From IMG/VR virus record IMGVR_UViG_3300050014_001197, positions 1 to 64,000 of that record: a stretch of 64,000 bases of DNA, one strand, 5' to 3'. Position 1 is the stretch's first letter, and every line of letters starts with the position of its first letter. Below the pieces are notes generated by a model that did no database searches, was not told the DNA's origin, and was given only the letters and a program-made list of their open reading frames with translations. Both the position numbers and the translations under genes were made by a program. Shown here one piece after another: positions 38,108 to 51,778 of this stretch. The stretch comes from a virus.

Positions 38108-38183
38108 GCGTCGGTATCGCGCCTCGCTACGAACGAGGAGAAGCGTAATTGGACACATGAGGGTTCGAATCCCTTTCGACGTT
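38108..38183 (+). tRNA. atypical tRNA-like element with anticodon arm ACG (Arg-like), no normal D-arm, 20-nt variable region
   Basis: Acceptor gcgtcgg/tcgacgt (GU at both ends). Perfect anticodon arm cctcg-cuACGaa-cgagg. Canonical T-arm gaggg-ttcgaat-ccctt. Only 7 nt lie between the acceptor and the anticodon stem. Confidence 0.3.
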
Positions 38184-44661: not shown

Positions 44662-44829
44662 TTTTTACAAAACCTAAGCATTTTTACCGCATATAAGTAG
44701 ATATATAGAGAAACAATAATAAAATGAAAAGGCACTCAATACATACGATTAGTATTACCTCATCCTCGGATAAGGTTGGCCTTCTAGTGAAAAGATGAAA
44801 TACTGATATAATCAGAATTAGTTTAATCA

Positions 44830-44862
44830 AAAGGGAAGGCTTCATAAGTTTTCCCTTTTTTC
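44830..44862 (+). terminator. rho-independent terminator
   Basis: aagggaa-ggcttcataagtt-ttccctt + TTTTT. Confidence 0.55.
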
Positions 44863-44880
44863 TTTGACATATTGTAATTT

Positions 44881-44973
44881 GGATGGGTACCCAAGTCCGG
44901 TTATAAGGGGATGGTCCTGAAAACCATTAGGTCGGTTAATAGCCACGCGTGGGTTCGAATCCCACCTCATCCG
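44881..44973 (+). tRNA. tRNA-Ser (UGA), class II, with C33
   Basis: Acceptor ggatggg/ctcatcc, anticodon arm atggt-ccTGAaa-accat, about 20-nt variable arm, T-arm gtggg-ttcgaat-cccac, 93 nt. Confidence 0.55.
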
Positions 44974-45037
44974 CTACGTTCTTTGAGATAGTTCGATCTC
45001 TTTTGATTATTGTAATTTCTAAGATCGAACTTATGAA

Positions 45038-45052
45038 TATATATAATAAATA
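45038..45052 (+). promoter_or_regulatory. late-like promoter box (tatatataataaata)
   Basis: Immediately upstream of GIY-YIG ATG 45058. Confidence 0.3.
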
Positions 45053-45057
45053 TCCAT

Positions 45058-45834
45058 ATGATTAACTATTTTTACAAAATTACGAATTTAATAAATAACC
45101 ATTTTTATTATGGTGTTCATAAAACTAATAATTTGGAAGATGGTTATATGGGTTCGGGAAAACGATCTAATTATGCTATAAAAAAATACGGAAAGGAAAA
45201 TTTTAAAAAAGATATTATTCAGTTTTTTGATACTTATCAGGAAGCTTTAGATTTAGAATCGGAAATTGTAAATGAAGAATTAGTTAAAGATATTAATTGC
45301 TATAATTTGAGTTTACAAGGGAAAGGAACCTTGAGGCAAGGGCCAGCTTTAATTAATAAAGAAACTAGAGAATTAATAAAACCTAATAATATTGAAGAAT
45401 TTAATAAGTTATTTAACACAGGAAATTATTTTGGACATACAGTAAATCACAGTTCCTTTATAGACGAAAACGGAGAAAGATATTATTTAAATGTAAATGA
45501 TAATCAGATTAAAGAATTAAATTTACATGGATTAAATAAAGGAAGAATAAGTTGCAAAGATTTATCCGGAAAACTTTATTTTGTTGAACAAAATGATGAT
45601 AGATTTTTAAGAGGGGAATTGATAAAATTTGGAATGATGACGGATAAAAAACAATCAGAAGAATGCAAAAAGAAAATTGGTCAAAAAAATTCTATAGCGC
45701 AAAAAGGAAAATTAAATTCCCAATATGGAACAAGTTGGATAAATAAAGATGGTAAAAATAAAAAAATAATAAAAGAAGAATTAAAAAAATGGATTCAGGA
45801 AGGTTGGAATCCCGGATCTAAATTTAAAAAATAA
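45058..45834 (+). CDS. GIY-YIG homing endonuclease
   Basis: NYFYKITNLINNHFYYGVHK ... YMGSGKRSNYAIKKYGKENFKKDI. Sits between tRNA-Ser and the tRNA-like/tRNA-Thr genes. Confidence 0.8.
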   Translation: MINYFYKITNLINNHFYYGVHKTNNLEDGYMGSGKRSNYAIKKYGKENFKKDIIQFFDTYQEALDLESEIVNEELVKDINCYNLSLQGKGTLRQGPALINKETRELIKPNNIEEFNKLFNTGNYFGHTVNHSSFIDENGERYYLNVNDNQIKELNLHGLNKGRISCKDLSGKLYFVEQNDDRFLRGELIKFGMMTDKKQSEECKKKIGQKNSIAQKGKLNSQYGTSWINKDGKNKKIIKEELKKWIQEGWNPGSKFKK

Positions 45835-45836
45835 AT

Positions 45837-45922
45837 GGTGATTGTAACCGGTAATGGTGCCCGACCAGACTGTGGATCTGGAATCTGAAAAGACCATGTG
45901 GGTTCGAGCCCCACCTTTCACC
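45837..45922 (+). tRNA. irregular tRNA-like gene with anticodon arm GUG (His-like); possible pseudo-tRNA
   Basis: Perfect anticodon arm ccaga-cuGUGga-tctgg. Canonical T-arm gtggg-ttcgagc-cccac. Extra 5' G and C73 as in tRNA-His. The acceptor (gtgattg/ctttcac) has 2 U-U mismatches and there is a 16-nt unpaired variable region. Confidence 0.3.
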
Positions 45923-45929
45923 CTAAAAT

Positions 45930-46002
45930 GCCTCTATAGTATAGTTGGTAATTATAACTGATTCGTAATCAGTAGACTGGGATTCGAATTCCCGTAAAGG
46001 CT
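45930..46002 (+). tRNA. tRNA-Thr (CGU)
   Basis: Acceptor gcctcta/taaaggc (one C-A mismatch), G18 G19 and T54-T55-C56 in register, anticodon arm actga-uuCGUaa-tcagt, T-arm tggga-ttcgaat-tcccg. Confidence 0.55.
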
Positions 46003-46019
46003 CAACTTAAATAAAGAAT

Positions 46020-46253
46020 ATGGCAAGAACAACAGTAATAAATGAAAGAACAGGAGAGATATTTCCTAAAAAATCCATAAGAGGAAGAAAAGATAAAAAA
46101 TTCTTTGGATGGAGAGAAGGAGATGGTTCAAATCCAAATGCAGTGAAAAATGAAGACTTCATGAATTATGGATGGCCAAACGAAGGAAGATCGAAATCAG
46201 TCATTCTTCAAAAAATGAGAGATGATGAAGATAATGCACTTATAGTTCAGTAG
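46020..46253 (+). CDS. hypothetical protein
   Basis: 77-aa ORF. TAG stop. Its last 19 nt overlap the 5' end of tRNA-Thr(GGU). Confidence 0.3.
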   Translation: MARTTVINERTGEIFPKKSIRGRKDKKFFGWREGDGSNPNAVKNEDFMNYGWPNEGRSKSVILQKMRDDEDNALIVQ

Positions 46254-46307
46254 GTAAAATACCGGTGTGGTATACCGGAGTTCTCAGTTCGATGCTGAGT
46301 AGGTGCT
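46235..46307 (+). tRNA. tRNA-Thr (GGU)
   Basis: Acceptor gcactta/taggtgc, anticodon arm ccggt-guGGUau-accgg, T-arm ctcag-ttcgatg-ctgag. Confidence 0.55.
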
Positions 46308-46313
46308 CAAAAT

Positions 46314-46398
46314 GGAGGGTTGACTGAGAGGTAAAGTACTAGTTTGGAAAACTAGAGTCAGGATAAAACTTGGGTGGGATCGTTACCCGCATCCTCCG
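46314..46398 (+). tRNA. tRNA-Ser (GGA), class II, non-canonical T-loop
   Basis: Acceptor ggagggt/atcctcc, D-stem act/agt, anticodon arm ctagt-uuGGAaa-actag, variable hairpin cagg-ataaaa-cttg, T-arm gtggg-atcgtta-cccgc. Confidence 0.5.
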
Positions 46399-46403
46399 CA
46401 AAT

Positions 46404-46475
46404 ATTGGTGTGGCGCAATGGTAGCGCAGAAGTCTTATATACTTACGGTTGGGGGTTCGAGCCCCTTCACCAGTA
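46404..46475 (+). tRNA. tRNA-Ile (UAU)
   Basis: Acceptor attggtg/caccagt, D-arm gcgc-aatggta-gcgc, anticodon arm gaagt-cuUAUau-actta, T-arm ggggg-ttcgagc-ccctt. Confidence 0.5.
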
Positions 46476-46481
46476 CAATTT

Positions 46482-46555
46482 GGGCGTATCATATAGTTTG
46501 GTTAGTATACGTGTCTGATAAACACGACACGGAAGTTCGAGGCTTCCTATGCCCA
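46482..46555 (+). tRNA. tRNA-Ile (GAU)
   Basis: Acceptor gggcgta/tatgccc, anticodon arm cgtgt-cuGAUaa-acacg, T-arm ggaag-ttcgagg-cttcc. Confidence 0.6.
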
Positions 46556-46585
46556 CCGCTATATATTTTGGGATTTAAGTCTCGA

Positions 46586-46596: not shown

Positions 46597-47247
46597 ATGA
46601 AAAGAGCATTATGTAAATCTTATTTTTATAAGATTGAAAATTTAATTAATGGAAATTTTTATTACGGAGTTCATAAAACTGATAATCCTAATGATAATTA
46701 TATGGGGTCAGGAAAAAGAATAAAATATGCTATAATAAAATACGGAAAAGAAAATTTTAAGAAAGAAATATTATTTACTTTTGAAACATTTAAAAAAGCT
46801 TTAGACTTTGAATCGGAATTTATTAATGAACAACTTTTATTAGATCCAAGTTGCTATAATATTGCGCTGGGTGGAAAAGGGGGACTTATAAATTTGGAAC
46901 ATAATTATAAATTTCGATTAGCAGGATCAAAACTTGGTGGGATTGCTACAATGAAAATTTTACATGAAAGACAAATAAATAATCCCGAATATCGAGAAAA
47001 ATGGTTACATGCATTAATAAATTGCAATAATTTGAGATTTTCAGGAAAAAAACATAAAGAAGAAGTAAAAATACAAGTTGGTAAAGTTAATGCTATTAAA
47101 CAAAAAGGTGAAGGAAATTCCCAATATGGAACTATCTGGATTCATAATGAAAAACAAATAATAAAAATAAAAAAAGAATTAATTATTGAATATGAAAATC
47201 AAGGATGGGTAAGAGGAAGAAAATTTGGAGAGAGGACAGGAAGGTAA
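46597..47247 (+). CDS. GIY-YIG homing endonuclease
   Basis: SYFYKIENLINGNFYYGVHK ... YMGSGKRIKYAIIKYGKENFKKEIL. Its 3' end overlaps tRNA-Ser(GCU). Confidence 0.8.
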   Translation: MKRALCKSYFYKIENLINGNFYYGVHKTDNPNDNYMGSGKRIKYAIIKYGKENFKKEILFTFETFKKALDFESEFINEQLLLDPSCYNIALGGKGGLINLEHNYKFRLAGSKLGGIATMKILHERQINNPEYREKWLHALINCNNLRFSGKKHKEEVKIQVGKVNAIKQKGEGNSQYGTIWIHNEKQIIKIKKELIIEYENQGWVRGRKFGERTGR

Positions 47248-51473: not shown

Positions 51474-51778
51474 ATGAAAAAGAAGAAATTTTTGGATTAG
51501 ATAATCTTTTAAAGAATATGGATCCTATTCTAGAAGAAAATGTAAAAGCTAGTATGATCATTGCAGCAGAAATTGATAATGAAATGAAAGCTCGGGGATG
51601 GGATTTGGATGAATTCCATAGGCAATGTAATGCTGTAATACCAAATGCCAAATCTAATTATGGTCTAAAAAAAATAGAAAATTGGCTAAAAGGAACTCAT
51701 GATTTTAAAATTAGTGAATTAATAATAATCAGAAAAGTATTAGGCGAAGATTGGTTAAACAAAATTGAAAAAATATGA
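51470..51778 (+). CDS. hypothetical protein
   Basis: 102-aa ORF. Confidence 0.4.
   Translation: MNEKEEIFGLDNLLKNMDPILEENVKASMIIAAEIDNEMKARGWDLDEFHRQCNAVIPNAKSNYGLKKIENWLKGTHDFKISELIIIRKVLGEDWLNKIEKI

Follow-up and report, generated by a model that had tools for sequence, protein, structure and literature searches.

The stretch of phage DNA analysed here (positions 1 to 64,000 of the IMG/VR virus record IMGVR_UViG_3300050014_001197; 64,000 nucleotides, hereafter the window) encodes, at 45837–45922 on its + strand, a tRNA-His(GUG) with two adjacent U·U mismatches in its acceptor stem and a hairpin in its variable region. Judging from sequence comparisons, this element is probably a functional, phage-encoded tRNA-His(GUG) isoacceptor that belongs to a conserved, essentially virus-restricted lineage and bears selected structural marks. 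An initial annotation, made from the letters alone, had called the acceptor stem defective and proposed either a pseudogene or a substrate in need of repair, pointing to a Thg1-like enzyme encoded at 51775 that can rebuild tRNA 5' ends. The two 'defects' recur in many unrelated-looking phage tRNA-His genes and therefore look selected, not broken and awaiting repair. By general understanding tRNA-His belongs to class I and its acceptor stem is paired, and no description of a U·U-mismatched, long-arm or class II-like tRNA-His in phages was found in the literature searched, full-text searches included. The design, which is conserved, almost exclusively viral and combines an extra hairpin arm with a tandem U·U, has apparently not been described before.

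The gene and its parts, in window positions, are as follows.

45837–45922, + strand: tRNA-His(GUG) gene, from G-1 to the discriminator C73 (ARAGORN, Rfam tRNA, compensatory changes in homologues).
45836–45837, + strand: U-2 and G-1 (T at 45836 and G at 45837 in the sequence).
45838–45844, + strand: 5' strand of the acceptor stem, GUGAUUG, with U5 at 45842 and U6 at 45843 (sequence, ARAGORN; the identical strand is found in loci L012, L014 and many others).
45845–45864, + strand: D region, made of a 3-nt connector UAA, the stem CCGG/CCCG, the loop UAAUGGUG and then A26 (ARAGORN, family alignment).
45865–45881, + strand: anticodon arm, stem CCAGA/UCUGG and loop CUGUGGA (C32, A38), with the anticodon GUG at 45872–45874 (Rfam, ARAGORN).
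45882–45897, + strand: long variable arm, made of AA, a stem strand UCU (45884–45886), a loop GAAA (45887–45890), a stem strand AGA (45891–45893) and CCAU (ARAGORN).
45898–45914, + strand: T arm, stem GUGGG/CCCAC and loop UUCGAGC (Rfam, ARAGORN).
45915–45921, + strand: 3' strand of the acceptor stem, CUUUCAC, with U67 at 45916 and U68 at 45917 (sequence, ARAGORN, homologues).

Counting G-1, the gene is 86 nt long. On the + strand its 5' part reads G-1, GUGAUUG, UAA, CCGG-UAAUGGUG-CCCG, A, CCAGA-CUGUGGA-UCUGG, and its 3' part AA-UCU-GAAA-AGA-CCAU, GUGGG-UUCGAGC-CCCAC, CUUUCAC, C73; CCA is not encoded (C at 45923, then UAAAAU). ARAGORN called a tRNA-His(gtg) and drew exactly this cloverleaf, and the Rfam tRNA model (RF00005; gathering cut-off 29 bits) matched 45838–45922 with 31.5 bits (E = 3.9e-5, model positions 1–71) in a local scan with lax filters. 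Most of what had been read from the sequence at first holds: the extra 5' G at 45837 lies opposite C73 at 45922, the anticodon and T arms are perfect with five Watson–Crick pairs each, and the two acceptor mismatches, U5·U68 (45842/45917) and U6·U67 (45843/45916), are present in the sequence and in the ARAGORN drawing, with pairs 1–4 and 7:66 intact. The stretch that precedes the T arm does have the 16 nt given for it, but is not unpaired, since it contains a 3-bp stem capped by the GNRA tetraloop GAAA. The D stem CCGG/CCCG holds a C·C mismatch, which is invariant in the family described below; in the other register a 3-bp CGG/CCG stem results. No damage is seen in the T loop, the GG of the D loop, the anticodon loop, G-1, C73 or U-2, and G+C content is 53.5% in the gene vs 31.7% across the window (22 points higher). 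Histidine identity is assigned on three concordant features, the anticodon GUG, G-1 and C73. The gene thus shares with bacterial-type tRNA-His the GUG anticodon, an encoded G-1:C73, U-2, a 7-bp acceptor stem plus G-1:C73, a 5-bp T stem, a canonical T loop and the D-loop GG, and departs from it in the 16-nt hairpin (in place of 4–5 nt), the tandem U·U, the 3-nt connector, the unusual D stem and the lack of an encoded CCA.

Seventeen distinct phage or metagenome tRNA-His genes, including those of the window and of locus L010, form a long-arm family. Its members were sought with the D-arm motif GTARCCGGTAATGGNNNCCGAC alone, the acceptor stem being left unconstrained (6 viral and 22 metagenome matches), and L302 was identified by visual inspection alone; the nearly invariant D-region motif of the family is GUARCCGGUAAUGGNNNCCGAC. 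With the cloverleaf imposed on seven aligned members, 89.6% of the cells were paired, compared with 33–48% when the partners were slid, and compensatory changes were found at nine pairs distributed across the four standard stems, including 30:40 (30:44 by alignment column) and 31:39 in the anticodon stem. G-1:C73 is invariant in the seven aligned members and present in 16 of the 17, only L307/L308 having A73. The variable arm is a hairpin in all members, with stems of 3–5 bp that differ in sequence yet remain complementary and with varying tetraloops (UCU-GAAA-AGA, GAA-GAAA-UUC, AAU-UUCG-AUU, AGA-GAAA-UCU, CCUU-AAAA-AAGG and UCCUU-ACAA-GAGGA). Mismatches at 5:68 and/or 6:67 occur in 10 of the 17 genes and nowhere else in the acceptor stem of any member. 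Two mismatches are present in seven, as exact U·U/U·U in five (window, L297, L302, L305 and L318), as U·U plus C·C in L201 and as U·C plus U·U in L315; three members have a single U·U, and seven are fully paired at both positions. In the closest relative, L201, which has a neighbouring protein 78% identical to its counterpart and neither an endonuclease nor a second tRNA-His alongside, pair 31:39 has undergone a compensatory change from A-U to C-G while U5·U68 is kept. As a separate observation, the D-arm motif GUAACCGGUAAUGG, otherwise specific to long-arm tRNA-His, also occurs at about 3392–3413 of locus L310 (metagenome contig Ga0214923_10035945) in a tRNA-like sequence to which, by eye, an acceptor stem UCUAUAC/GUAUAGA and a loop with UGG (Pro) can be assigned and for which ARAGORN made no call.

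The variable arm bears on the question of identity, since a better-scoring class II fold with a different identity would have spoken against the initial annotation. The window tRNA-His has neither the 4–5-nt variable loop nor the fully paired 7-bp acceptor stem of class I; it has the long stem-loop variable arm of class II, without the anticodon and discriminator of tRNA-Ser, -Leu, -Tyr or -Sec. It resembles these bacterial class II tRNAs in its hairpin arm, short D stem and length of about 86 nt, and tRNA-Sec in an acceptor/T branch of 8/5 when G-1:C73 is counted, but it differs from them in its His anticodon, discriminator and G-1, in an arm stem of just 3 bp and in its family-specific D-arm sequence. 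A73 is the discriminator of tRNA-Leu and of bacterial tRNA-Tyr, from which the C73 of the window differs. The architecture is thus class II-like, although no alternative fold yields another anticodon with either Rfam or ARAGORN. The long arm and short D stem would nevertheless fit charging by seryl-tRNA synthetase or another synthetase of class II tRNAs, with CAY codons misread, and long-arm allo-tRNAs with non-Ser anticodons that are charged with Ser do exist (PMC5389517). We regard such an identity as very unlikely given the near-constant G-1:C73 of the family and a C73 where Ser-charged long-arm tRNAs are reported to have G73 or U73 (PMC5389517). The (8/4) tRNA-His and allo-tRNAs of Mukai et al. 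(2016, PMC5389517) are likewise irregular and found in phage tRNA clusters, and the allo-tRNAs are long-armed; the (8/4) tRNA-His have an 8-bp acceptor and a 4-bp T stem, no G-1, and A73 or U73, whereas the window gene is 7/5 with G-1:C73.

The tandem U·U extends well beyond the long-arm family. A first pattern, GUGAUY...CUGUGRA...UUUCACCC, in which positions 1–6 and 67–73 were fixed, matched 66 viral loci, about 52 of which are genuine tRNA-His genes of 72–78 nt with very diverse D, anticodon and T arms, nearly all directly following AUG; the long matches of this pattern were considered as tRNAs and rejected as chance matches. Applied to 185,579 cellular genomes, the same pattern gave mostly chance matches, with 2 genuine tRNAs among the 120 matches listed, both on short contigs of metagenome-assembled genomes. 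A less constrained scan, with positions 5–7 and 66–68 free, returned at least 120 loci and 85 distinct validated tRNA-His genes. Among the matches listed, pair 5:68 is mismatched in 41% of these 85 genes (35/85, U·U in 31 of the 35), pair 6:67 in 33% (28/85, U·U in 25 of the 28), pair 7:66 in 1% and the pairs of the anticodon and T stems in 0–12%, the commonest single state being U·U/U·U (21/85). Pair 7:66 covaries (GC 21, UA 9, CG 3, AU 2). By comparison, 495 distinct non-His tRNAs of the same phage loci have 0.8–3.0% mismatches per acceptor position, with 1.2% at 5:68 and 3.0% at 6:67. The exact U·U motif is present in the 642-kb uncultured phage LR756502 (phage sequence collection), Bacillus phage G has U5·U68 in its tRNA-His together with a gene for a Thg1-like protein (TLP), and Erwinia phage phiEa21-4 has U4·U69 and U5·U68. 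Among cultured phages we also noted that the annotated tRNA-His of Citrobacter phage Ci1 (L294, OR515478.1 71952–72024; Straboviridae) has T at -1; its G-1 is therefore not encoded, unlike that of nearly all other phage tRNA-His examined.

That these mismatches are specific to position, base and isotype and almost exclusively viral argues for selection and not decay. A decaying pseudogene or non-functional duplicate, produced by A-to-U changes and a slipped duplication in the variable region (AUCUG twice, a short direct repeat within AUCUGGAAUCUGA), would agree with the weak Rfam score, with a homing endonuclease inserted immediately beside the gene, with the AT-richness of the genome and with a minimum free energy (MFE) structure that is not the cloverleaf (z = -0.3, a folding result that is uninformative alone). 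Decay is nonetheless very improbable: both oddities are kept in many divergent homologues, the U·U in dozens of them, while pair 7:66 and the other stems change in a compensatory manner; mismatches at these positions are not a trait of the non-His tRNAs of those phages; and the intact T loop, D-loop GG, anticodon loop, G-1, C73 and U-2 and the raised G+C content are unlike those of a gene in decay.

The second explanation offered by the initial annotation involves the following gene, located 5.9 kb downstream of the tRNA-His.

51775–52518, + strand: Thg1-like protein of the bacterial TLP type, 247 amino acids (Pfam PF04446, similarity to 4KGK).

This open reading frame (ORF) scored 108.9 bits with PF04446 (cut-off 29.2), and its best solved relative is the TLP of Bacillus thuringiensis (BtTLP, 4KGK), which is similar over the full length (E = 2e-56) and of the same length class, the window protein being phage-encoded; eukaryotic Thg1 structures gave just 1e-12 to 8e-15. 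Its DG and SDE motifs, which we take to be those of the catalytic carboxylates of the family, align with 4KGK. By sequence the product is thus a true bacterial-type TLP, a predicted 3'–5' polymerase, and the original assignment stands. TLP homologues number more than 8000 in metagenomes, and 162 cultured phage records have one; a published discussion counts them among the RNA-repair genes that occur sporadically in jumbo phages (PMC7824862). Contigs encoding TLPs 65–71% identical to that of the window (L001, L010 of 376 kb, L011 of 263 kb, and L012) share its neighbourhood, in which the tRNA array is followed by TLP, WYL_2, SEC-C, guanylate kinase and peptide deformylase, with RNA ligase and Tpt1 nearby.

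Deep editing by the TLP would require G-1 to at least U6 to be removed and resynthesised on the UUUCAC template, giving A-U at 5:68 and 6:67. The synteny of the TLP gene with U·U-type tRNA-His genes in relatives, the pairing of a TLP with a U5·U68 tRNA-His in Bacillus phage G and the ability of BtTLP-type enzymes to fill in 5'-truncated tRNAs by templated addition (PMC3061083) all speak for it; moreover, opposite U68 and U67 only U or C can be a mismatch, so the excess of U in the 5' strand argues only weakly against editing. We nevertheless judge it quite improbable. TLP-dependent 5' editing as reported corrects mismatches in acceptor pairs 1–3 only and in many tRNA species (PMC4284800), whereas here pairs 1–4 and G-1:C73 are always intact and just 5:68 and 6:67 are hit; seven nucleotides would need to be removed and rebuilt, and no candidate 5' nuclease was identified. 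The mitochondrial systems of Acanthamoeba, Dictyostelium and chytrids share with the window gene-encoded acceptor mismatches and a TLP in the same genome, but their editing of pairs 1–3 in many tRNAs contrasts with a His-specific U·U at pairs 5–6 (PMC4284800). Around such tRNA-His genes, tblastn with the window TLP found a TLP in 1 of 115 loci (about 1 Mb) and in 0 of 74 loci of an earlier set, loci of at most 15 kb that address linkage and not co-occurrence within a genome. The hot spot is also His-specific, while TLP repair is not tRNA-specific: for BtTLP-type enzymes, which add G-1 opposite C73, any 5'-truncated tRNA is a preferred substrate (PMC3061083), and these properties fit general 5'-end repair or restoration of G-1. 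The proposed repair link between the two genes is therefore not supported, and the TLP is context for the tRNA-His. G-1 itself would need no TLP addition because U-2, G-1 and C73 comply with the rules of RNase P and the AUG directly 5' of +1 is found in nearly all related phage tRNA-His genes. The phage TLP may act as a general 5'-end repair enzyme, which at most would restore a lost G-1 or 5' nucleotides and would leave the mismatches in place.

Within 6 kb upstream of the TLP gene, L010, L011 and L012 each have two tRNA-His genes, and L001 has the canonical copy alone in range. In the canonical copy of the former three the acceptor stem is paired throughout and the loop is UUGUGR, while the acceptor of the U·U-type copy is GUGAUUG/CUUUCAC in L012, GUGAUCU/AUUUCAC in L010 and GUGAUUC/GUUUCAC in L011, so that U5·U68 and U6·U67 (or C6·U67) are kept while 7:66 covaries (G-C, U-A and C-G). 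A U·U-type acceptor is thus found in four of five Thg1-anchored relatives (window counted), beside or replacing the canonical copy. At the place syntenic with the window gene, L010 also carries a tRNA-His of 92 nt that shares the odd D region and has the variable hairpin UCCUU-ACAA-GAGGA and a fully paired acceptor stem (GUGAAUG/CAUUCAC). The distribution of these features over neighbouring copies lends some support to their being marks of the kind proposed below. Where two adjacent copies are present (L010, L199/L202), the long-arm one combines a canonical-type loop with a paired stem and the short one has the C32/A38 loop, together in L010 with U·U-type mismatches; the single long-arm copy of the window, L201 and L204 unites arm, C32/A38 and mismatches. 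A constant association of C32/A38 with U·U was considered and is weakened by L297, L305 and L318, which have A32 or U32 with U·U/U·U. A blastn search with the tRNA and its flanks against cultured phages gave no close relative, only the homing endonuclease and generic tRNA arms being matched, and a near-exact tRNA-His pattern had no match in viral contigs. Contigs with identical or 74%-identical TLPs (L003–L009) end at the tRNA array and yielded no tRNA-His.

The retention of a canonical tRNA-His beside the U·U copy in many phages suggests that the latter is not simply redundant, and this would also suit a tRNA-shaped RNA whose role is mainly non-decoding, be it a decoy or sponge for a host nuclease directed at tRNA-His or for histidyl-tRNA synthetase (HisRS), a regulator, or an RNase P site for the endonuclease mRNA, the tRNA-His starting 3 nt past the stop codon of the upstream endonuclease ORF. 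Irregular G-1 tRNAs that are charged by HisRS yet unused in translation have been described by Mukai et al. (PMC5389517). We consider such a role unlikely: the gene is the sole tRNA-His seen in the arrays of the window and of L201, which fits decoding, its anticodon, T and D loops keep all elements for ribosomal function, and the U·U type occurs in many loci with no adjacent endonuclease.

If the gene encodes a functional isoacceptor, as we favour, the tRNA-His would be transcribed together with the tRNA array, and cleavage by host RNase P would fall between U-2 and G-1 and leave G-1 in place; U-2, G-1 and C73 are determinants for bacterial RNase P cleavage at -2/-1 with G-1 kept (PMC5499578). 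CCA would have to be added post-transcriptionally, because none is encoded, and HisRS would charge the product through G-1:C73 for the reading of CAY codons. The tandem U·U would stay stacked in the helix as a non-canonical, selected motif and, with the extra arm and the C32/A38 loop, may form a mark that separates the phage tRNA-His from that of the host. A tRNA bearing such a mark could be acted on only poorly by a nuclease or inactivating enzyme that the host or a rival element directs at tRNAs, while His identity is kept. Our leading guess for the purpose of the U·U and the arm is accordingly worded by analogy, as evasion of tRNA-targeting nucleases or as a self mark. Phage tRNAs are known to evade tRNA-targeting defences via sequence changes (PMC10264068; PMC11555353), and the nuclease-resistant phage tRNAs (van den Berg et al. 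2023, PMC10264068; T5 tRNA-Tyr and tRNA-Lys, PMC11555353, PMC11464382) resemble the window type in having conserved phage-specific departures with an intact decoding identity and in often standing beside or replacing canonical copies. They differ from it in relying on anticodon-loop changes or overexpression, the marks described here being in the acceptor stem and the variable arm.

Several observations weigh against this interpretation. The covariance-model scoring suggested by the initial annotation exceeds the cut-off with lax filters, but an Rfam gathering scan of the whole window with default filters did not list the tRNA-His gene. Thermodynamics does not favour the cloverleaf (-17.9 vs -22.7 kcal/mol for the MFE structure). 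Conservation within the first U·U set is partly by construction, because positions 1–6 and 67–73 were fixed, and the less constrained scan is a limited sample. The proposed purpose is an argument from analogy, and no tRNA-His-specific acceptor-stem nuclease was identified in this analysis. Finally, the contig is at least 133 kb long and the window accounts for 64 kb of it; the remainder may hold a canonical tRNA-His, in which case this copy could be dispensable; of the window-edge proteins used to extend past the window, one was not on record and the other lay on a 6.8-kb contig.

ARAGORN found 16 tRNA genes in the window, which is part of an AT-rich large phage, and the surroundings of the tRNA-His include the following features.

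44881–46557, + strand: tRNA array Ser(UGA), [endonuclease], His, Thr(CGU), Thr(GGU), Ser(GGA), Ile(UAU), Ile(GAU) (ARAGORN).
45058–45834, + strand: GIY-YIG (Seg-like) homing endonuclease ORF (Pfam GIY-YIG; matches to phage homing endonucleases).
46597–47247, + strand: second GIY-YIG-like (Seg-like) ORF, just under the Pfam cut-off (Pfam).

The tRNA order of this array is repeated in L010 and L199/L202. Seg-type endonucleases sit in phage tRNA clusters, and the first ORF abuts the tRNA-His gene, stopping 3 nt 5' of G-1; the acceptor changes might then confer DNA-level immunity to this endonuclease, if its target lay in the tRNA-His gene. Compared with the endonuclease-free long-arm gene of L010, the window acceptor differs exactly at positions 5 and 67. 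We hold this to be extremely unlikely, the mismatches being present also in the endonuclease-free L201, L012 and L011 and in dozens of unrelated loci. Ten related loci, L201, L010, L199 and L012 among them, were compared and contain no homologue of either GIY-YIG ORF. These ORFs stand where relatives have additional tRNA-His or tRNA-Ser genes, and leftovers of a deleted short tRNA-His, sought between tRNA-Ser and the endonuclease ORF, were not seen.

Upstream of the array lies a strong terminator-like hairpin (44829–44859), directly 3' of which is a motif, TTGACATATTGTAATTT (44864–44880, +), that precedes tRNA-Ser(UGA) and is repeated as TTGATTATTGTAATTT (45004–45020, +) upstream of the endonuclease ORF; this repeated motif could be a phage promoter or processing signal. 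The tRNA-Thr(CGU) gene that follows tRNA-His (45930–46002, +) has an acceptor mismatch, C5·A68, at a pair position also mismatched in tRNA-His; from the sequences of relatives, which show G-C or U·G, it looks lineage-private. A 77-amino-acid ORF (46020–46253, +) with no Pfam match lies between tRNA-Thr(CGU) and tRNA-Thr(GGU), and its last 18 nt are also the first of the tRNA-Thr(GGU) gene (5' end at 46236). Elsewhere in the window, an amber-suppressor-type tRNA with anticodon CUA (3442–3517, +; ARAGORN label 'Pyl', Rfam tRNA 57.8 bits) raises the question of UAG readthrough or recoding by the phage. Inspected by eye, an irregular tRNA-like gene (38108–38183, +; Rfam tRNA 29.1 bits, no ARAGORN call) has CUACGAA as its anticodon loop (ACG, Arg), its variable region being long and its D arm poor, and is similar to the 88-nt tRNA-Arg(ACG) of L200. 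Besides TLP, the phage group has an RNA-repair-type gene set (window, about 58660–60554; L010, 1–330; L011, 16991–17524; L012, 14675–15196), comprising a ligase-like ORF (DNA_ligase_A_M, weak RNA_ligase match) and a Metallophos phosphoesterase (window, 59314–60057) and, in relatives, RNA ligase PF09414 (L010) and Tpt1/PTS_2-RNA (L011, L012). L011 also encodes a homologue of translation initiation factor IF3.

Hairpin arms like those of class II were also observed on many phage tRNAs of 81–92 nt with class I anticodons (L001 5741–5824; L010 5209–5290; L011 3224–3310; L012 6903–6984; L199 2508–2591, - strand, and 10932; L200 5768; L203 2853 and 4389; L204 9242 and 9339). They include a conserved long-arm tRNA-Ile(GAU) family with the arms GUG-CUUG-CAC, GUC-UUCG-GAC and GUGC-UUUU-GCAC. 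About 60 unique long-arm class I cases occur in the sampled loci, Pro(UGG) with 12 and Gln(UUG) with 8 being the commonest and Met, Asn, Lys, Trp and Arg also represented, and the long arm is therefore not peculiar to tRNA-His.

From the design found in the window, one may suspect that long-arm class I tRNAs form a broader set in the tRNA arrays of large phages. It also carries a warning for annotation, as such tRNA genes fall under default covariance-model filters and risk being dismissed as pseudogenes. As a tentative and rather doubtful extension, large phages may keep a parallel set of 'marked' tRNAs, in which the U·U bubble of tRNA-His at 5:68/6:67 and the hairpin arm on class I tRNAs (His, Ile, Met, Asn, Lys, Trp, Arg, Pro and Gln) would form a virus-specific recognition code; were this true, the code could spare phage tRNAs from the tRNA-directed immunity of the host or from an attack that the phage itself mounts on the tRNAs of its host, and it may route tRNAs to phage RNA-repair enzymes (TLP, RNA ligase and Tpt1). 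If the marks are recognition or anti-recognition elements, they lend themselves to tests with variants (U·U vs A-U, with or without the arm) for the choice of the RNase P site, recognition by HisRS and tRNA-targeting defence nucleases, and the arms race between phages and hosts over tRNAs would no longer be confined to the anticodon loop but would take in the acceptor stem and the variable arm as well.

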